From contig CBDBGH010000003.1 of assembly GCA_965205265.1 (NCBI GenBank), positions 576,001-640,000 of the forward strand: a stretch of 64,000 nucleotides of DNA. Reading direction: 5' to 3'. The stretch is from Alphaproteobacteria bacterium. GTDB lineage: Bacteria > Pseudomonadota > Alphaproteobacteria > Bin95. Each line of letters starts with the position of its first letter. The first letter of the stretch is position 1. This document shows, piece after piece, positions 6,140-60,584 of this stretch. The notes under the pieces were generated by a model, which saw only the letters and a program-made list of their open reading frames with translations, ran no database searches and was not told the DNA's origin. The translations under genes were made by a program, and so were the position numbers.

Positions 6140-6270
6140 CCGGCCCGCTCTCGAAGCCGTCTCGACCACGCTCGAAGGCAAGACCGAAAAACGGAAAAAC
6201 CCATCCCGAGTTCGCTGGCCTTCGTCGCATGGGTCTGCGCACGCCATCGGTGGATGGACCGCATACCACG
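6140..6270 (+). pseudogene. Degenerate IS4-family transposase C-terminus, left part (target of the composite transposon)
   Basis: Reads LEAVSTTLEGKTEKRKNP...GGWTAYH and continues after the TSD at 20698 as GKPGPVVM (one frameshift). Confidence 0.6.
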
Positions 6271-10993: not shown

Positions 10994-11215
10994 ATGACCA
11001 AGGCACTGCATAAACTGGGTTCCACTGCGACGGCCGCCGTGAACGGCCGGCTCGCGGAAGCCGCGCACTTGCAGGCGATCGAGGGCAATCCGCTGACAGC
11101 GGAGGAGATCGCCATGTTCGAGATGTTCGAGCGCGAGGGATGGCCACCCGAGCGGCGCCGCGCCCATATCCTGAGCCGGATCAAGGACCGCGGCCGCACC
11201 GCCGCGGCGGAATGA
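10994..11215 (+). CDS. Small antitoxin of a Fic toxin (VbhA/FicA-like)
   Basis: 73 aa; LQAIEGN resembles the inhibitory (S/T)xxxE(G/N) motif; ATGA overlap with the fic gene. Confidence 0.75.
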   Translation: MTKALHKLGSTATAAVNGRLAEAAHLQAIEGNPLTAEEIAMFEMFEREGWPPERRRAHILSRIKDRGRTAAAE

Positions 11216-11778
11216 GCGACCGCGACTACTGCTATCCGCCCGACTACACCGTTCTCCGCAACCTGCTGGACATCCGGGACGCCCCGGCGCTGGAAGCGGC
11301 CGAGCGCGAGTTGGTCGCCCAGCGCCTTCTTGAGACCGTGCCGGCGGGCGACTTCGATCTTGCCCACCTGAAGGCGATCCACCGCCATCTGTTCCAGGAC
11401 GTCTACGCCTGGGCGGGCGAGGTCCGCACAGTCGAGTTCGCCAAGGACGGGAGCCGATTCCAGCCGAGGCGGTTCATCGAGACCGGCATGGCGGACATCC
11501 ACCGCCGCATTGTGGCGGCCGGGTATTTCGCGGGGCTGGGGCCGGACGGGTTCGCCGGGGGTGCCGGCCCGGTGCTGGGCGACGTCAACCATGTCCACCC
11601 GTTCCGCGAGGGCAATGGGCGCACGCAGCTCCAGTATCTGAAGCAACTCGCCGCGCGCGCCGGGCATGTCCTCGACCTGACCCTGCTCGACCGCGCCGCC
11701 TGGCTGGACGCCTCGCGGCGGTCCAATACGGGCGATCATGCCGCCATGACCCGCTGCATCCGCTACGCGCTGATATAG
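11212..11778 (+). CDS. Fic-domain protein (FicT-like toxin)
   Basis: Y.YP...VLRN, IHRHLFQDVY.WAGE.R, canonical HPFREGNGRTQ. Confidence 0.92.
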   Translation: MSDRDYCYPPDYTVLRNLLDIRDAPALEAAERELVAQRLLETVPAGDFDLAHLKAIHRHLFQDVYAWAGEVRTVEFAKDGSRFQPRRFIETGMADIHRRIVAAGYFAGLGPDGFAGGAGPVLGDVNHVHPFREGNGRTQLQYLKQLAARAGHVLDLTLLDRAAWLDASRRSNTGDHAAMTRCIRYALI

Positions 11779-11995
11779 CCGACCGCGCTTTCATCCGCCG
11801 CCGTTGACGCTCACAGCACCCGACCGCCTCGCCTCCACCCGTGTTGCCGTCTCGTTGTCCTTGAGTGATCTCGCCGCCCGTCCGCTTCCCGCCGTCAAGA
11901 GGAGAGGTTTGGCCGTGAACGGGGCGGCGGTCGGGGCGTCCGTGGGAGGGTGTCCGGCTGCCGCTCATCATCACCGACAGGATGGAGACGGCACC

Positions 11996-12103
11996 ATGAC
12001 GGCAGCGATGGCAATACCCGGCAACACGGCGGAGACGTTCCTGGTTCATTTCTTCGGCACCGGCCTGGCCGACGACCGCTATGTGGTCGAACGCTACCGG
12101 GCC
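11996..12103 (+). pseudogene. 5' fragment of an unknown gene truncated by IS66-B
   Basis: GGAG RBS and ATG; 36 open codons ending exactly at the IS66-B left end. Confidence 0.45.
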
Positions 12104-12192
12104 GTAAGCGATGGAGTGGACGCCCCTCCCGACGGCATCGCAATGTGCCAGGTTGACGGTGTTGTAAACGCCAAGAGAGGAAAGGGGCGTCC

Positions 12193-13215
12193 ATGGAACA
12201 GGTTAGCATGATCGGGATCGATCTCGCGAAGAACAGCTTTCAGCTTCACGGTGCGCGACCCGAAGGATCGGTCGCGTTCCGGAAGAAGCTGAGCCGGGGT
12301 AAGGTGCTGGGGTTTCTGGCCTCGCAGCAGCCCTGCACAGTTGCGATGGAAGCCTGCGGCGGCGCGCATCATTGGGGTCGTGAGATTGGGCGTCTGGGCC
12401 ATGCGGTGCGGTTGGTTCCGCCGGCCTACGTGAAGGCCTACGTCAAGCGACAGAAGAACGATGCGGCGGATGCGGAGGCGATCTGCGAGGCGGCATCGCG
12501 TCCGACGATGAGTTTTGTGGCGGTGAAGACGGTCGAGCAGCAGGCCCGTGGCATGCTGTTCCGCACGCGCGATCTGCTGGTGCGCCAGCGGACCCAGACG
12601 ATCAACGCGCTTCGCGGCCACCTGGCGGAGTTCGGTGTCATTGCTCCCCAGGGCCCGGTTCATGTCGAGCGTCTGGCGTCGGCGCTTGAAGACCCGGACC
12701 TGGATCTGCCGGATGCGGTCCGCGAGCTGGCCGGCCTTCTGTTGAACCAGATTGGCGGGCTTGGCGAGAAGATCGATGGCCTTGACGGGGAAATCCGGGC
12801 GGCGGCTCGGCAGGACGACGAGGTACGTCGTCTGATGACGGTGCCGGGGATCGGCCCGATCACTGCGATGGCGGTTCAGGCCTTCGCGCCGCCGATGGAG
12901 ACCTTCCGGCGCGGACGGGACTTCGCCGCCTGGCTCGGCCTGGTGCCGCGCCAGCACACGACCGGCGGCAAGCCGCGGCTGGGCAAGATATCGAAGATGG
13001 GCCAACGCGATCTGAGACGGCTGCTGATTACAGGCGCCATGGCGGTCGTTCGCTGGGCGGCTCGGCGCGGCAGGACGAACGATCCATGGCTTGCCAGGAT
13101 GCTGGCGCGCAAGCCGCGTATGCTGGTCGCCGTGGCGCTGGCCAACCGGATGGCGCGCATCGTCTGGGCGCTGATGATGAAGAAGGAGAGTTACCGGGCT
13201 CCCGCCGCCGCCTGA
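12193..13215 (+). CDS. IS110-family DEDD recombinase/transposase
   Basis: GIDLAK, MEAC, KNDAADAEAI, VPGIGP, LGLVPRQHTTGGK. Confidence 0.95.
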   Translation: MEQVSMIGIDLAKNSFQLHGARPEGSVAFRKKLSRGKVLGFLASQQPCTVAMEACGGAHHWGREIGRLGHAVRLVPPAYVKAYVKRQKNDAADAEAICEAASRPTMSFVAVKTVEQQARGMLFRTRDLLVRQRTQTINALRGHLAEFGVIAPQGPVHVERLASALEDPDLDLPDAVRELAGLLLNQIGGLGEKIDGLDGEIRAAARQDDEVRRLMTVPGIGPITAMAVQAFAPPMETFRRGRDFAAWLGLVPRQHTTGGKPRLGKISKMGQRDLRRLLITGAMAVVRWAARRGRTNDPWLARMLARKPRMLVAVALANRMARIVWALMMKKESYRAPAAA

Positions 13216-13467
13216 CAGGGCGGCCGGACGGGTAGCTGTCGGGGACGCGGGCAGGTCTGAGGAAAGGCAAGGGCAAACGGTCAATCGAGACGGGATCGGG
13301 AAAACCAGTTCAGCTCCGCAGGGCCGTTGAGCTCGCGTAAGCGATTTGGACCCGGTCCGCGCATCTCCATGAGGGCCCGCGGCGCGTGACCTGCCGCATT
13401 GAGAGGCCGGACACACGACAGCGCCTGACCGCGCGCCGAGCCGCCCGAAGAAAATGCTTGCGTCACC
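13216..13467 (+). ncRNA. Putative bridge RNA/seekRNA locus of the IS1111 element
   Basis: Non-coding end contains CGTAAGCG (target left half), CTCCAT and ACACACGA (donor-junction halves) among hairpins; transcript boundaries unknown. Confidence 0.65.
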
Positions 13468-13550
13468 AGGGGCGTCCACACACGGGGCGAGCGGGGCACC
13501 TTCCAGGTTCGGTTCTGATTTGAGATTCACGCCTGCGAGTTGGGCAGGAG

Positions 13551-13955
13551 GTGAGTTTCACATTGTTGGGCTCAGTTGAGACACACAGGACGGTTGAAGT
13601 GCTTCCGGCGCGTGGCGGACGTCGTCGCTGGCCGGACGAAGTGAAGGCTCGGATTGTAGCGGAGACGCTGGAGCCTGGGGCGACGGTGCGCGCCGTTGCG
13701 CGGCGATACGATGTTCATTCGAACCAGCTGACGAGCTGGCGGCGTCTGGCGCGGGATGGGCGTCTTGTTTTGCCTGCGGCGGAAGCGGGCGTGGAGTTTG
13801 CGCCGCTTGTGGTGCGGGCTGAAGGGCGCGGCGGTGCCGAGGTGAGCGGCGCGCGTGTGGAAGTGGTCCTGGACCGGGTTACGGTCCGTCTGGACGCGGC
13901 GGTGCCGGCGGTCCGGCTGGCGGAGATCGTCTCTGCGCTGAACGCGTCGTCATGA
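13551..13955 (+). CDS. tnpA: IS66-B TnpA
   Basis: Paralogous to 6356-6745. Confidence 0.85.
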   Translation: MSFTLLGSVETHRTVEVLPARGGRRRWPDEVKARIVAETLEPGATVRAVARRYDVHSNQLTSWRRLARDGRLVLPAAEAGVEFAPLVVRAEGRGGAEVSGARVEVVLDRVTVRLDAAVPAVRLAEIVSALNASS

Positions 13956-14305
13956 TCTTCCCCTCGAACCGGGTGCGGATCATGGTCGCGACGAAGCCCG
14001 TCGACTTCAGGAAGCAGCACGACGGTCTTGTGGCCTATGTGAAGAGCGCGCTGCGCCGTGACCCGTTCACGGGCACGGTGTTCGTGTTCCGGGCGAAGCG
14101 CAGCGACAGGCTGAAGCTGATCTACTGGGACGGGACCGGCCTGGTCATGGTCTACAAGCGCCTGGAGGAGCAAGGCTTTGTGTGGCCGGCGATCCGGGAC
14201 GGGGCGATGACGTTGAACCATGCGCAGTTCGAGGCCTTGTTCGCGGGCCTGGACTGGCGTCGCGTGCGGGCGCTGTCGGTCAGGGCGCCGGCCGAGGCGG
14301 AATGA
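13952..14305 (+). CDS. tnpB: IS66-B TnpB
   Basis: Paralogous to 6742-7095. Confidence 0.92.
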   Translation: MIFPSNRVRIMVATKPVDFRKQHDGLVAYVKSALRRDPFTGTVFVFRAKRSDRLKLIYWDGTGLVMVYKRLEEQGFVWPAIRDGAMTLNHAQFEALFAGLDWRRVRALSVRAPAEAE

Positions 14306-14360
14306 CTCACCGCACGGATCGCGGCCTGCGGCTCCGCGACACTGTGCTATCGGGTGAGCC

Positions 14361-15009
14361 ATGGCTGCGCTTGCGGAGATGGACCTCGACACGCTGACGC
14401 CCGAACAGGCGGCGGCCGCGAGGCAGGCGCTTGCGGCGCTGGAGACGCTGCGTGCCGAGAACGAGACGCTGGCGGAAGAGAAGGCCTGTCTGGCGGGTGA
14501 GAACGAGGCGCAGGCCGAACGCATCCGCCGTCTGGAACATCTGAACCTGGAACTGATCCGGCTTCTGTATGGCAAGAGGTCGGAGAAGCTGTCGGCGGAC
14601 GAACGCCAGCTGGCGTTCGAGGAGCTTGAGGGCGCGTCTGCGGAGGTGGAGGCCGCGGCGCCGCCGGAAGACCCGTCGCCGGCGCGCTCGGCGAAGCGGC
14701 CTCGTCCGGCGCGCAATCTCGGCCATTTGCCGGAACACCTGCCCCGGATCGAGCAGGTGATCGAGCCGGAGAGCACGCTCTGCCCCTGCGGCTGCGGGGA
14801 GATGGTGCGGATCGGGGAAGATCGCGCCGAGAGGCTCGACATCGTGCCGGCGCAGTTGCGGGTGATCGTCACCGTGCGCCCGAAATACGCCTGCCGGACC
14901 TGCGAGGGAGGCGTCACCCAGGCGCCGGCGCCGGCCCGGCTGATCGAGGGCGCGCTGCCGACTGAAGGCGCCATCGCCCATGTTCTGATCTCGAAATACG
15001 CTGACCACA
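14361..15009 (+). pseudogene. tnpC: IS66-B tnpC exon 1
   Basis: Ends at KYADH; joins 19668 in frame to give DHTPLYRQ. Confidence 0.88.
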
Positions 15010-15714
15010 GTGTGTCCTGAAGCACCGCCATGAAAGGAGGTGCGCAACTGCAAGAGAGATGAGGGTAGGCCCCTCGGGGTCGACGATCAGGCGTCGGTCT
15101 CAAACCACCACGAGCTGCTGTCGTAAAGAGCGATGGTGGTGAGCGTCGTGGAAACGGCGGGACGACGATCTCGTCAGGTGAGGTCCGGGGAGACGAGCGA
15201 AAGCGAACCGCCGATGAACTGCCGAAAGCGTATGGTCGATGTCAGAACCGGGGGTGGTGGTCACTCCGGGATAAGCATGGGCGGAGTCCTGGAGTCCGGC
15301 CCACGCGGCATCCGGCTCGAAGGCGGCGTGAACCCGGAACAGGCTTTCTTGCGGAACAGGAGAACCTGTCGTCCCGATGCCAAGGGAGACGGCCAACCGG
15401 GCAGCCCCCGGAAGGCTCAGAGTACCGATGCGGGGCACAGGGGCAGAACAGCCTATAGCGCGACAATCTGGGTGAGAGCCGCGCGTCAATCAGGATGAGA
15501 TTCCCCGGCGGCATCGGCGAGTTGATGATTGTCGCGCGGGGCGCGGATTGCAAGCGGTTTCGGATTTTGATTGTCGCGGCGCGACAAACAAGGTTTTCGG
15601 AGAGCGTTTTGATTGTCGCGGGGGGGCCGTCGGGTCGGAGAAGAGACGGCCCGCGGAGGCGATTCCCGCGGGCCGTGAGTGTTGTGGCCGCTGGGCCGAT
15701 CTGGCGGCAGCGGT

Positions 15715-18062
<2,348 letters not shown>

Positions 18063-18344
18063 CTACTCGGAAAAACGTCACCGTTCGCCCAGCCGACCGA
18101 CCCCGCCAGAAGGTCCAGGAAAAATTTTTTGAGGCGGCGGCCCGGAACTCCGGTCGGGCTACGCCCTCCCTCCGTTCCGGGCCGCCGCCTTCCCCCGTCT
18201 CATCCTGATTGTCGCCAGCGTCTCAAGCTGATTGTCGCGCCGCAACAGCCCGTAGTAGGGATGAAGGCGCTGTAATGGCGCTGGACCGAAGGGGCTGTGG
18301 TGTTCAGCCGCTGCCGTCGGCCAACTGGTGACAGGAGGAGCCGG

Positions 18345-19604
18345 ATGACAGGGGCAAAGCCGTTCCCGATAGCAAAGAGGGAAGTCTGGGAAGCCTTCAA
18401 GCATGTGAAGGCAAACCGGGGAGCGGCTGGAGTAGATGGGCAGACGGTCGAGAGTCTGGAGGAACGGCTTGGTCCGGAACTCTACAAGCTCTGGAATCGC
18501 ATGTCCTCAGGCAGCTATATGCCGCCTCCGGTTCGCAGGGTGAACATCCCCAAGGAGGGCGGCGGGAAGCGCCCGTTGGGCATACCGACGGTCACGGACC
18601 GCATCGCTCAGGAGGTTGTTCGCCGACATCTGGAGCCCTTGTTGGAACCGATTTTCCATGAGGACTCATACGGATATCGGCCGAAGCGATCCGCCATTGA
18701 CGCCATCCGGACAGCGCGTCGGCGATGCTGGCGCTACGACTGGGTGCTGGACATGGACATCAAGGGGTTCTTCGACAACATCGACCACGAGTTGCTGCTG
18801 AAGGCCGTTCGTCACCATACGGACTGCCGGTGGGTGCTGCTCTATGTCGAGCGCTGGTTGAAGGCTCCCGTGATCGAGGAGGACGGCACCGTTGTCGCAC
18901 GGGACAGGGGCACGCCACAGGGCGGGGTAATTTCGCCAGTATTGTCCAACCTGTTCCTGCACTATGCGTTCGATCAATGGATGAAAAGGTCGATGCCGCA
19001 TGTTCCGTTCGAACGGTATGCGGACGATATAATCTGCCATTGTCGAACGGAGGAGGCGGCAAAGACCCTCTGGCGGCGGGTTGCGGACCGATTGGCCGAG
19101 TGCGGCCTGGAGGTCCATCCGCAGAAGACCAAGGTGGTCTACTGCAAGGATACCAACCGCAAGGCGGACTACCCGACGGTCGCGTTCGACTTCCTGGGCT
19201 ACCGTTTCCAGCCAAGGTTCGCGGCGTGGCGCGGCGGGTTGTTCGGGGTCTCGTTCCTTCCGGCTGCCAGCCCGACTGCGCTCAAGGCGTTTCGGCGCCG
19301 CGTGCGACAGTGGCGTTTGCAACGGCGTAGCGACAAGGCGCTGCTTGACCTTGCCCGCATGTTTCATCGCGAAATTGCAGGGTGGATCGGCTACTTCGGC
19401 GCATTCTACAAGTCGGCGCTCTATCCGACCCTTCGTCTGATAGACGCCCACTTGCAGCGATGGGCAATGCGGAAGTTCAAACGCTTCCGACAACGACCGC
19501 GTCAGGCTCGTCTCTGGCTTGCCAGAATCGCGAAAGCGGAGCCGTGGCGGTTCGCCCATTGGACCCTTTTGCACGGGCAGGGCCGGACGCTGGGAGCCGT
19601 ATGA
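18345..19604 (+). CDS. ltrA: Group II intron reverse transcriptase/maturase (no endonuclease domain)
   Basis: GAAGVDG, RPLGIPTV.DRIAQ, GTPQGG, RYADD, FDFLGY; AGGAGG RBS before ATG 18345. Confidence 0.95.
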   Translation: MTGAKPFPIAKREVWEAFKHVKANRGAAGVDGQTVESLEERLGPELYKLWNRMSSGSYMPPPVRRVNIPKEGGGKRPLGIPTVTDRIAQEVVRRHLEPLLEPIFHEDSYGYRPKRSAIDAIRTARRRCWRYDWVLDMDIKGFFDNIDHELLLKAVRHHTDCRWVLLYVERWLKAPVIEEDGTVVARDRGTPQGGVISPVLSNLFLHYAFDQWMKRSMPHVPFERYADDIICHCRTEEAAKTLWRRVADRLAECGLEVHPQKTKVVYCKDTNRKADYPTVAFDFLGYRFQPRFAAWRGGLFGVSFLPAASPTALKAFRRRVRQWRLQRRSDKALLDLARMFHREIAGWIGYFGAFYKSALYPTLRLIDAHLQRWAMRKFKRFRQRPRQARLWLARIAKAEPWRFAHWTLLHGQGRTLGAV

Positions 19605-19667
19605 GCTGAGAGGTTCACGTACGGTTCTGGGAGCGCGTGGGGGTGAGATTCCCCCGCGCGACTCGCT

Positions 19668-20660
19668 CCCCGCTCTATCGTCAGAGCCGGATCTACGCCC
19701 GCTCGGGGCTGGAGCTGGACCGCTCGATCCTAGCCGGCTGGGTCGGCAAGGCGGCGTTCCACCTCGGGCCCGTGTATGACCGCCTGAAGGCGGCGCTGAA
19801 GACGTCGAACAATCTGGGTCTGGACGAGACCACGGTTCGGGTTCTCGACCCGGGCCGGGGCAAGACGAAGACCGGCTATCTGTGGACGATGGCGCGCGAC
19901 CAGCGGGCCTGGTCCGGGGCGGACCCGCCGGGCGTGGCGTATGAGTATGCGCCCGGGCGTAGCGGCAAGCATGGCGAGAGGCTTCTCGAGGGCTTCAGGG
20001 GAACGGTGCAGATCGACGGCTACTCCGGCCACAACCGACTGGCTCGGCCGAACCGGGCGGGCGGGGCGCTGACGCGGGCTGCCTGTTGGGTCCATGCCAG
20101 GCGGGGCCTCGAGACGGTGTTCGACAGCAATGGCTCGCCGATCGCGAAGGCCGGACTGGACCGCATCGCGCAGCTCTATGCCATCGAGAAGAAGATCCGG
20201 GGTAAGCCGCCGGCGACGCGCCAGTTCGTCCGCTGGACCGAGACCGCGCCGCTGGTGAATGCCTTCGGCCTGTGGCTCGCCGAGCAGCGCTCGCTCGTCT
20301 CGCTCAAGTCCCGGCTCGGCGAGAAGCTGTCCTATATCGCCAACCAGTGGGACGGGCTGCTGGTCTTCCTGCGCGACGGGCGCGTCGAGATGGACAGCAA
20401 CTTCGTCGAAAATCGCATCCGGCCGATCAAGCTCACCGCGAAAAACGCACTGTTCGCCGGCCACGACGAGGGCGCGCGCGCATGGGGCCGCATCGCCAGC
20501 CTCATCGAGACCTGCAAGATGAACGGCGTTGAGCCCTACGCCTGGCTCAAGGACACGCTGGAGAAAATCGCCGGAGCCTGCCCCTGCGAAGGCGGGGGGC
20601 CACCCCAACAGCCGCATCGACGACCTACTTCCCTGGAACTTCATCCCGCCGTCAAGCTGA
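19668..20660 (+). pseudogene. tnpC: IS66-B tnpC exon 2, frameshifted near the C-terminus
   Basis: LDET, QIDGY, CWVHARR; 22 extra nt within 20573-20600 shift the HPN..DDLLPWNF tail out of frame. Confidence 0.85.
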
Positions 20661-20697
20661 AAGCCGGGTGCCCTTCGCGCACCGCTTACATACCACG

Positions 20698-42801: not shown

Positions 42802-43030
42802 GACCGTTTGAGAATGGCGTCTATACGGGATCCGGTCCGGTTCCGTAATGCCCGAACGTCCCCCTTCGTCATGCCCGGACTTGTTCCGGGCATCCACTTT
42901 GGCCGCCGCAATGGCCCCCGAGGGAGATGCCCGGAACAAGTCCGGGCATGACGGGAAAAGGATCGGGGTAACGCCTTCGGTCCTGCCTCGAACCCCCCGG
43001 ATACCGTAAATGGTCAATTCTCAAACGGTC
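42802..43030. repeat. MITE-like element A containing a REP-like hairpin
   Basis: 14-bp TIR GACCGTTTGAGAAT; internal 28-bp perfect IR at 42867-42953. Confidence 0.75.
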
Positions 43031-60221: not shown

Positions 60222-60584
60222 CATTGCTGTCCGGTTCAGCCATTGGGTGAGGCTGAACGGGAGTCCGCGGGGGGTTTCGGGGGCGCGCGGCGTCTGCGAT
60301 CCGCCCCTTGCCCGTGAGGCTCGAACGCCCCCTTTCGGCAGGCTCGGGGCAGGCTCTTTCGTCATGCCCGGACTTGTTCCGGGTATCCATACGGCCGCCC
60401 GGCGGAGCCGCTTGAGAGAGATACCCGGAACAAGTCCGGGCATGACGATATGGGGGTCGGGCATGACGACTTGGGGGCCGGGCCGCCGGGCGTCGATCCG
60501 GGTCCCGATCCCGCCGAACCCCTCGAAACCCGGTTGAATCCAGGCCATGCGCCCTGCCCGCAAATCCTGAACCGGACAGCAATG
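60222..60584. mobile_element. MITE B (IS4-like ends) containing a REP-like hairpin
   Basis: 18-bp TIR CATTGCTGTCCGGTTCAG; 9-bp TSD CGCCGGCCG (60213-60221, 60585-60593); hairpin at 60360-60447. Confidence 0.8.

Follow-up and report, generated by a model that had tools for sequence, protein, structure and literature searches.

Introduction

The insertion sequences (IS) IS4321 and IS5075 are said to insert in the 38-bp terminal repeat of Tn21-family transposons, at a fixed position and in a fixed orientation, as reportedly described by Partridge and Hall in 2003. Here, we analyze a comparable arrangement in a 64,000-nucleotide stretch of an Alphaproteobacteria bacterium (assembly GCA_965205265.1, contig CBDBGH010000003.1, positions 576,001 to 640,000), referred to below as the window; the assembly is referred to as the host genome. 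Positions 12111–13484 of the window hold an IS1111-type element that sits inside the left terminal repeat of an IS66 element, IS66-B. As judged from sequence comparison, the element very probably encodes an RNA-guided IS1111 recombinase that is aimed at IS66 ends by an RNA from its own 3′ region. What it has in common with IS4321 and IS5075 is that an IS1111-type element occupies the terminal repeat of another transposon, always at the same place and facing the same way. Their target is the Tn21-family 38-bp repeat, whereas the element of the window targets IS66 and belongs to another transposase lineage, one in which the right guide visibly diversifies across IS66 subtypes.

Bridge-RNA work on members of the IS110 family is said to include that of Durrant et al. 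and the structures of IS621. Like IS621 and ISCro4, the window element combines a DEDD recombinase with a predicted two-loop guide RNA that reads target and donor around a 2-nt core. Unlike the window element, IS621 and ISCro4 have no subterminal repeats. In their group, the guide RNA is encoded upstream and the order of the guides is reversed (PMC11187229). Bridge-RNA work on IS110 is also treated in PMC13604230. The IS1111 members ISEc11, ISKpn4/ISPst6/ISPa25, and ISPa11 have an experimentally demonstrated seekRNA and, compared by their described traits, resemble the window element in their downstream non-coding region, subterminal repeats, transposase of 330–350 amino acids with the motif GL-P----S(t)G, and guide order (PMC11187229). 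They differ in their targets, attC sites and repeated extragenic palindromes (REP) among them, and the window element is known from sequence alone. Finally, REP-targeting IS110/IS1111 elements such as ISPpu9 use a repeated genomic sequence as their insertion site (PMC12288879). The repeated and harmless nature of that target is a likeness, and sister elements of the window element do the same; the difference is that the repeated target of the window element is the end of another autonomous transposable element.

An IS1111 Element Inside an IS66 Terminal Repeat

The transposase open reading frame (ORF) matches the Pfam domains DEDD_Tnp_IS110 and Transposase_20 (PF01548 and PF02371; E values of 2.7e-14 and 4.2e-24) and the NCBIfam model NF033542, "IS110 family RNA-guided transposase" (E 3.4e-97; 325.7 bits against a cutoff of 140). 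The stretch GLVPRQHTTG in the protein corresponds to the motif GL-P----TG. The two subterminal repeats are complementary at 12 of 12 positions and lie 5 and 4 nt from the ends of the element. Ends were assigned by script at 82 loci of relatives, and the same layout is found at the 60 loci where both ends could be defined (12 gave no left end and 10 no right repeat). IS1111 members are described as having a transposase of 330–350 amino acids with the motif GL-P----S(t)G, subterminal repeats, and a downstream non-coding region, which distinguishes them from IS110 proper (PMC11187229). From the Pfam and NCBIfam matches, the 340-residue transposase, its motif, the 12-bp subterminal repeats, and non-coding stretches of 82 bp before and 269 bp after the gene, it follows that the element is a member of the IS1111 family within IS110, with which it agrees in each of the sequence traits compared. 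Among solved structures, a phmmer search found relatives only in the transposases of ISCro4 and IS621 (9t56, E 9e-16, and 8wt6, E 1e-11); the matches cover residues 212–328, in the C-terminal domain, and the N-terminal domains were unmatched by phmmer.

Elements of the IS66 family have terminal inverted repeats beginning GTAAGCG and produce an 8-bp target duplication. The repeats of IS66-B begin in this way (left, GTAAGCGGGGCGAGCGGGGCACC; right, read inwards, GTAAGCGGTGCGCGAAGGGCACC). The element is preceded by GTAAGCG and followed by GGGCGAGCGGGGCACC, after which come IS66 tnpA, tnpB, and the start of tnpC, a gene set identified by the Pfam domains HTH_Tnp_1 (tnpA), TnpB_IS66 (tnpB), zf-IS66, and LZ_Tnp_IS66. 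The uninterrupted sequence GTAAGCGGGGCGAGCGGGGCACCT is present twice in the host genome, together with a GGGACGAGC variant, at the left ends of IS66 copies that are 95–97% identical; empty GTAAGCGGGGCGAGC sites exist in the same genome as occupied ones. These empty sites show that the insertion point is exactly GTAAG-CG-GGGC, 7 bp inside the left terminal repeat, with CG at both junctions, in agreement with what the initial annotation of the window had proposed. The features are listed in Table 1.

Table 1. Features of the IS1111-type element, its predicted guide RNA, and the surrounding IS66-B in the window.
Feature	Position	Strand	Remarks
IS1111-type insertion sequence	12111–13484	+	1374 bp; boundaries shiftable by the 2-bp CG core; ends set against empty sites
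DEDD transposase ORF	12193–13215	+	340 amino acids; contains GLVPRQHTTG
Left subterminal inverted repeat GTGGACGCCCCT	12116–12127	+	Reverse complement of 13469–13480; conserved in relatives
Right subterminal inverted repeat AGGGGCGTCCAC	13469–13480	+	Partner of 12116–12127
Target-binding module (predicted)	13292–13358	+	Closing stem GGGAUCGGG..CCA (13292–13307) with UGGACCCGGUCC (13347–13358)
Right-target guide AGCUC-CG (AGCTCCG)	13312–13318	+	Register fixed by relatives' reverse complements of core and right flank
Small hairpin between target guides	13321–13334	+	GGG 13321–13323 with CUC 13332–13334; holds most of GCTCGC
Left-target guide GUAAGCG	13337–13343	+	Equals top strand of left flank including core
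Right-donor guide CUCCAU	13365–13370	+	Reverse complement of left end ATGGAG
Donor-module scaffold	13374–13408	+	GGCC/GGCC stem 13374–13377 with 13405–13408; GCGGC/GCCGC hairpin 13379–13383 with 13393–13397 on top
Left-donor guide ACACACG	13411–13417	+	Equals last 7 nt of element including core
Outer 7 bp (GTAAGCG) of IS66-B left inverted repeat	12104–12110	+	Final CG is one copy of the recombination core
Rest of IS66-B	13485–20689	+	Inner left repeat GGGCGAGCGGGGCACC; right repeat ends ...CGCTTAC at 20689
IS66-B tnpA	13551–13955	+	
IS66-B tnpB	13952–14305	+	
IS66-B tnpC	start 14361	+	

Guide Segments in the 3′ Non-coding Region

The 3′ region had been proposed to encode a guide of the seekRNA or bridge type, and this proposal is supported by segments that change together with the flanks and ends of the element across its relatives. 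Of the four guide assignments made in the initial annotation, three were borne out: the left-target guide GTAAGCG, which co-varies with the left flank across the family; the left-donor guide ACACACG, which varies along with the right end; and the right-donor guide CTCCAT, which fits the left ends of relatives. To estimate how often these motifs arise by chance, the 252-nt non-coding region was resampled 20,000 times under a first-order Markov model. GTAAGCG was present in 0.7% of the resampled sequences, ACACACG in 1.4%, and CTCCAT in 2.0%, and all three together in none (0/20,000).

For the right-target guide, the initial annotation left two candidates, neither of which is upheld. One of them, GCTCGC (13331–13336), belongs to a hairpin strand (GAGCTCGC/AAGCCCGC) that is kept in relatives whatever their target, and on this comparison its fit to the IS66 of the window is a coincidence. 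The other candidate, CCGCA (13316–13320), read against the TGCGG of IS66-A, is out of register with the core position of the family. No copy was found at an ATGCGG-type end, and the GTAAGCGATGCGG-type ends of the host genome (IS66-A and a third type) are all uninterrupted (0/18 occupied). The comparison of relatives instead fixes the guide as AGCTCCG (13312–13318), in which GCUCCG (from 13313) would pair with the top-strand CGGGGC through one G:U. With this register, the complement of the top strand lies 5′ of the complement of the bottom strand, and the same order, top-strand complement first, is reported for IS1111 seekRNAs (PMC11187229).

Co-variation of Guides with Flanks and Ends

A protein-seeded scan of one genome per species found 456 relatives, from which the best 80 loci were kept (cited below by locus number); the relatives of the window transposase are alphaproteobacterial and marine. 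Their 3′ regions share a framework that begins with ...GGGAUCGGGAAAACCAG, a variable segment of 7–9 nt ending in the complement of the core, and the small hairpin. It continues with a variable segment of 7 nt ending in the core, AUUUGGACCC ... GCGCAU, and CUCCAU, and it closes with a GGCC hairpin GGCC, GG, a further 7 nt, and ACAGC.

Each variable segment follows a different part of the site. The second one equals the left flank plus core: GTAAGCG in the window element, GCAAACG in L010, AGATCCG in L014, AAAATTG in L015, AAGTCCG in L031, and GGGACG in L024. The first one is the reverse complement of core and right flank (TTGACCG in L010, CCGGACG in L007, GGGTCA in L015), and the last one tracks the element's own right end (ATAGACG, ACAGATG, ATACACG, ACACACG). 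The right-donor guide is CUCCAU or UUCCAU in relatives whose left ends read ATGGAG or ATGGGG, combinations that are compatible through G:U. L016, the only aligned element with a TG core, has A in place of G at the base 5 nt upstream of CUCCAU (columns 138 and 197 of alignment A1), a change that accompanies the core-base change in its left-donor guide. This paired change could reflect base pairing within the RNA, or else the donor module might read the core at a separate position.

Guide fit was scored as the number of consecutive exact matches counted outward from the core, core included, and own pairings were set against mismatched ones in contrasts that are descriptive only. Of 19 unique pairs of left guide and own left flank, 15 reach a run of at least 6, as do 8% of 320 mismatched pairings; for the right guide, the figures are 16/30 with the own right flank and 3.4% of 842. 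Within the class of elements that carry a GTAAGCG guide, the right guide reaches this run in 9 of 13 cases (14% of 146 mismatched pairings). In addition to these nine, the right guide of L140 fits its flank by eye; the script misregistered the right end of L140 because that end is tandemly duplicated.

The clearest cases are elements with near-identical non-coding regions that differ in their right guides: AGCTC against a GGGC flank in the window, CCGGA against TCCGG in L007, and, as a third variant on the same scaffold, CCAAA against TTTGG in L140. Overall identity between the window element and L007 is 92.5%, and their differences are densest in 13311–13330 (8 of 20 positions). Two metagenome relatives at GGGC-type sites (L185 and L190) carry a right guide with perfect fit, GCCCCG. 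Comparison in this way establishes where the guides lie, that they co-vary with the flanks and ends, and that an association with IS66 exists.

Elements with a GTAAGCG Guide Beyond the Host Genome

Metagenome contigs were searched for the guide in its RNA context, a search that was not conditioned on the flank. It returned 118 stretches with the pattern, of which 13 had the RNA framework, corresponding to 12 distinct sites (L149 and L183 are the same); under the filters used, the other 105 lacked the framework and were treated as chance matches. Among 401 genomes of the class, the guide pattern was matched in three only: the host genome, G335, where it is a chance match inside a kinase-like gene (L088), and G006, which has a 5′-truncated copy with an internal deletion and a flank that does not fit the guide (L089). 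Together, 20 loci have a GTAAGCG guide, namely the 13 from metagenomes, the window, L001, L007–L009, the truncated L089 (left out of the counts), and L209 on a Sinorhizobium fredii plasmid.

Wherever the left flank could be read, it was GTAAGCG (11/11 distinct sites). The remaining loci are 5′-truncated or cut by a contig end and were not scored: L140, L195, and L208 are 5′-truncated or consist of the non-coding region only, and L098, L113, L185, and L190 end before the left junction. On the other side of the core, the right guide follows the inner stretch of the IS66 repeat, for which the right flanks show the types TCCGGTCTGACTG..., TCCGGCCTGACC..., TTTGGTCTGACC..., TTCGGCG..., GGGCGAGCGGGGCACC, GGGCGTCCGCCCCACC, CCCGCCCC..., and CTCGGCCC.... 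At 9 of the 20 loci, the right flank leads directly into IS66 tnp genes; among relatives with other guides, an IS66 gene within 1.5 kb was found in none (0/55). The occupied end is the left one in the window and L001, and the right one in L008, L009, L092, L113, L156, L190, and L204. Insertion is always after GTAAGCG with the left end of the element facing the IS66 tip, at left and right ends and in at least four inner-repeat types. No partner inverted repeat was found downstream of the insertions within the available flanks.

The plasmid-borne members include two with variant tips. On the S. fredii plasmid, the guide CACCGGACG stands against the flank CG TCCGGTG. An element on a plasmid of Rhizobium sp. 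T1473 (L210) carries GTGAGCG as its guide and again as its flank. A further one, on a Ti-type plasmid (L211), adjoins IS66 tnpC/B/A, and its guide (CTAAGCG) and flank (GTAGGCG) disagree. In the record annotation of L210 (1538–3223), a gene for a type III effector of the XopAG/AvrGf1 family stands immediately upstream, and genes for group II intron maturases are found downstream.

Tandem duplications were seen at some junctions. The right end of L140 reads GGGGCGTCCACAAACG and then GGGGCGTCCACACACG, L211 has GTCCACACAC three times, and L149 and L183 have two copies of the left flank ACGGTCGGTAAGCG. Recombination that was abortive or took place repeatedly may have left these traces.

Predicted RNA Structure and a Proposed Mechanism

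A consensus structure was computed with RNAalifold from 23 non-redundant relatives. It consists of the closing stem of the target module, a hairpin between the target guides, and, in the donor module, the GGCC/GGCC stem with the GCGGC hairpin; the target guides fall in unpaired stretches. In this structure, 97.5% of cells are paired, a figure favored by the fact that the structure was derived from the alignment on which it was scored; many pairs never vary. Seven pairs (18 cells) are changed on both sides, compared with 2.3 in 500 column shuffles, none of which reached 7, and pairing drops to 26–42% when the partner is slid by 1–3 columns. Helices 3 and 4, which form the target closing stem, are 98–100% paired and include two of these doubly changed pairs; at columns 96/108, in the target hairpin, nine sequences have both partners replaced; and in the donor module, helix 8 is invariant and helix 9 has three doubly changed pairs.

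The following mechanism is proposed for the element. The transposase would bind an RNA from about 13290–13430, a seekRNA or bridge RNA, whose two modules would be built alike from a closing stem, a guide, a hairpin, and a second guide. In the target module, AGCUCCG would pair with the top strand of core and right flank (CG GGGC, with one G:U), and GUAAGCG would pair with the bottom strand of left flank and core. In the donor module, CUCCAU and ACACACG would read the joined ends of the excised circle (...CCACACA-CG-ATGGAG...). Exchange at the shared CG core would then insert the element after GTAAG-CG and ahead of GGGC, its left end adjoining the IS66 tip. Over the lineage, the left guide would stay on the tip common to IS66 ends, and the right guide would be re-set to the inner repeat of the local IS66 subtype. 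Production and binding of the RNA, formation of the circle, and strand exchange at CG are modeled here on other IS1111/IS110 members.

Several observations weigh against guided targeting of IS66 ends. The single-sequence fold of 13288–13432 is no more stable than that of shuffled sequences (z = 0.36). A promoter scan of 12050–13560 found no sigma-70-like site, and a search of 11000–17000 against Rfam at E values up to 1 gave no match to a guide-RNA family; the only matches there were a group II intron (RF01999) and a weak snoRNA match due to chance. The right guide of the window is imperfect for its own site, with one G:U near the core and no match beyond 4 nt, and the host genome contains no perfect GTAAGCGGAGC site. 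The relatives are not independent of one another, and the permutation contrasts given above overstate significance. At L007, L098, L149, L185, L208, and L209, no IS66 gene lies within at least about 1 kb of right flank, and L098 adjoins a gene for malate synthase G. In the host genome, the two full copies may stem from one insertion that was spread by recombination or composite movement.

Some of the loci without an IS66 gene may be solo or relic repeats, as suggested by L185, whose flank differs little from the flank of L190, a locus adjoining tnpC; others may merely resemble the address. A Pfam search of ten long ORFs beside L098, L185, L208, and L149 recognized only the malate synthase G at L098, and this absence is weak because the regions are GC-rich with spurious ORFs. 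Three terminator-like sites were predicted in 12050–13560, all inside the transposase gene and none at the guide RNA.

Possible Retargeting Across the Family

A quick maximum-likelihood tree of 76 transposases was rooted at its midpoint, with support from the Shimodaira–Hasegawa-like approximate likelihood ratio test (SH-aLRT) only; it gives no direction of change. Nine of its rows are labeled GTAAGCG or a one-base variant (six GTAAGCG, plus L210 and L211), and they take up successive positions along the backbone of the tree. The labels need five changes, of which well-supported branches force at least two. This pattern is compatible with an old habit of inserting at IS66 tips followed by repeated retargeting, or with repeated gains of that habit.

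Other lineages of the family have different addresses. L010, whose transposase is 85% identical in amino acids, is found on contig CBDHDJ010000004.1 of an alphaproteobacterial metagenome-assembled genome (L010:2501–3877) and has inserted into a sibling IS1111 element, at GGGCAAACG|GTCAATCG in the 3′ non-coding region. Its target is a family-conserved stretch about 35 nt upstream of the target module, and its guides GCAAACG and TTGACCG match the site. Among 23 aligned copies of this stretch, the core C is missing from that of L010 itself alone (GGGCAAA-GGTCAA), a loss that, in this single case, would protect the element from itself. L031–L033 (75% amino acid identity) are inserted at GGAACAAGTCCG|GGCATGACG, a palindromic repeat unit, and L015–L021 and L027 sit at CAAAATTG|ACCCCC inside another short repeat. 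The palindromic unit hit by L031–L033 occurs several times in the window, unoccupied (42866–42953 and 60359–60448; inverted repeats I5, I8, I10, and I13).

From these patterns, one might suppose that targeting of IS66 tips is old, possibly ancestral in a large IS1111 clade, in which one half of the guide was locked on a sequence that IS66 ends can hardly vary and the other tracked the divergence of IS66 subtypes, and in which retargeting to REP-like repeats occurred repeatedly, once (L010) to the guide-RNA gene of a sibling. We regard this as a tentative scenario that is somewhat more doubtful than probable. If it is true, it would describe a natural RNA-guided relationship of transposon on transposon that was the source of repeated retargeting to REP-like repeats.

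Alternative Explanations

The first alternative keeps the mechanism and changes the role. The initial annotation saw a hyperparasite that disables IS66 ends. It is an equally good reading that IS66 tips serve as an abundant and harmless landing site, often plasmid-borne and comparable to REP sequences for related elements, with inactivation of IS66 as a by-product, and we find the evidence for this role evenly poised. Sister lineages target repeated extragenic palindromes and other repeats, some copies with a GTAAGCG guide lie away from any IS66 gene, and several of the targeted IS66 copies are already remnants, L009, L156, and L190 keeping the C-terminus of tnpC only. On the other side, an insertion at this place separates the outer 7 bp of the repeat from the remainder and would be expected to impair the IS66 end concerned, and the presence of this left guide or a one-base variant in lineages at several places along the backbone of the tree suggests long-standing specialization.

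A second alternative is that the link to IS66 is passive, with one old insertion carried around by IS66 transposition or recombination and no ongoing guided targeting. In its favor are the copies in the host genome. There are two full copies, the one in the window and C3:2334336–2335709, which are 100% identical and occupy the same type of IS66 left repeat with different outer flanks. The two loci remain 100% identical from the IS66 tip to window position 15009 (2.9 kb) and are 94% identical beyond, and the switch falls exactly at the insertion point of a group II intron. The IS66 of the second copy is bounded by an intact 8-bp duplication, GCGAAATC, which is compatible with composite movement. 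A third copy is an 87-bp relic of the left end with 94% identity (L003; G000:C3:432577–432670, minus strand). It is preceded by GTAAGCG and is joined inside the tnpC of another IS66, about 115 bp before its right end; intact copies of tnpC read CCACCC where the relic has GTAAGCG, and the sequence is unrelated past the 87 bp. The relic thus keeps GTAAGCG at a new junction, which indicates that an occupied IS66 tip was once joined there. Against passive carriage, at least four inner-repeat types at left and right IS66 ends are occupied across genomes with the right guide matching each, and being carried along would not re-set a guide; moreover, a single genome contains copies of one repeat both with and without the insertion. 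We therefore consider a purely passive link improbable.

The least credible alternative, for which we see very little chance, is that the protein or the subterminal repeats choose the site and that the 3′ matches are coincidental or used otherwise, for instance in regulation: the unremarkable single-sequence fold would suit it, but across the family four separate segments vary together with the flanks and the ends, three exact matches together by chance have a frequency below 1 in 20,000, and dependence on a seekRNA was demonstrated experimentally in other IS1111 members (PMC11187229).

Occupancy in the host genome can also be read by site type. Two of six GTAAGCGGGGC sites are occupied, and two GTAAGCGGTGCGCG right ends, which would set U opposite T, are empty; the numbers in both cases are small. 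A metagenome-run contig that matches the window has a different sequence left of GTAAGCG. A distant IS110-family paralogue with about 39% amino acid identity is also present in the host genome (G000:C3:2142118–2142761; L004–L006).

The surroundings of the element carry signs of further rearrangement. The 8-bp flanks of IS66-B in the window differ (ACCGGGCC on the left, 12096–12103; ATACCACG on the right, 20690–20697), which indicates that this copy was rearranged. ATACCACG is also found at 6262–6269, as the left flank of the IS66-A copy at window position 6270, and this shared flank points to recombination between IS66 copies in the region. The tnpC of IS66-B is broken at about 15010 by the group II intron (about 15010–19660; Rfam match RF01999 at 15061–15179, E 1.6e-23). 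The same IS66-B copy was struck by two different mobile elements, the IS1111-type element and the intron. Just upstream of its left end, at 11140–11778, lies an ORF with a Fic/DOC domain (Pfam PF02661, E 2.8e-11).

Significance

A literature search, which did not cover ISfinder, TnCentral, or the target logos of over 300 IS in PMC11187229, found no paper that links IS110/IS1111, seekRNA, or bridge RNA with IS66 ends. An earlier description of this target is possible, for example, among those logos. The mechanism and the habit of inserting in the terminal repeat of another transposon are already known, and IS66 ends are the new target class. In this respect, the element of the window widens what RNA-guided IS1111 recombinases are seen to target in nature, to include the ends of IS66-family elements. 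The near-identical elements, which differ in a re-set right guide only, form a natural series that provides data on the weight of single guide positions and on the tolerance of mismatches and wobble pairs. This series, with its fixed left guide, and the sibling-targeting element L010 are of specialist interest. In rhizobia, IS66 elements are common on symbiosis and Ti-type plasmids, and they are also common in marine alphaproteobacteria. By splitting IS66 ends, an element of this kind could influence both the activity of IS66 and the rearrangement of plasmids, and some annotations of "nested IS" may be due to it.

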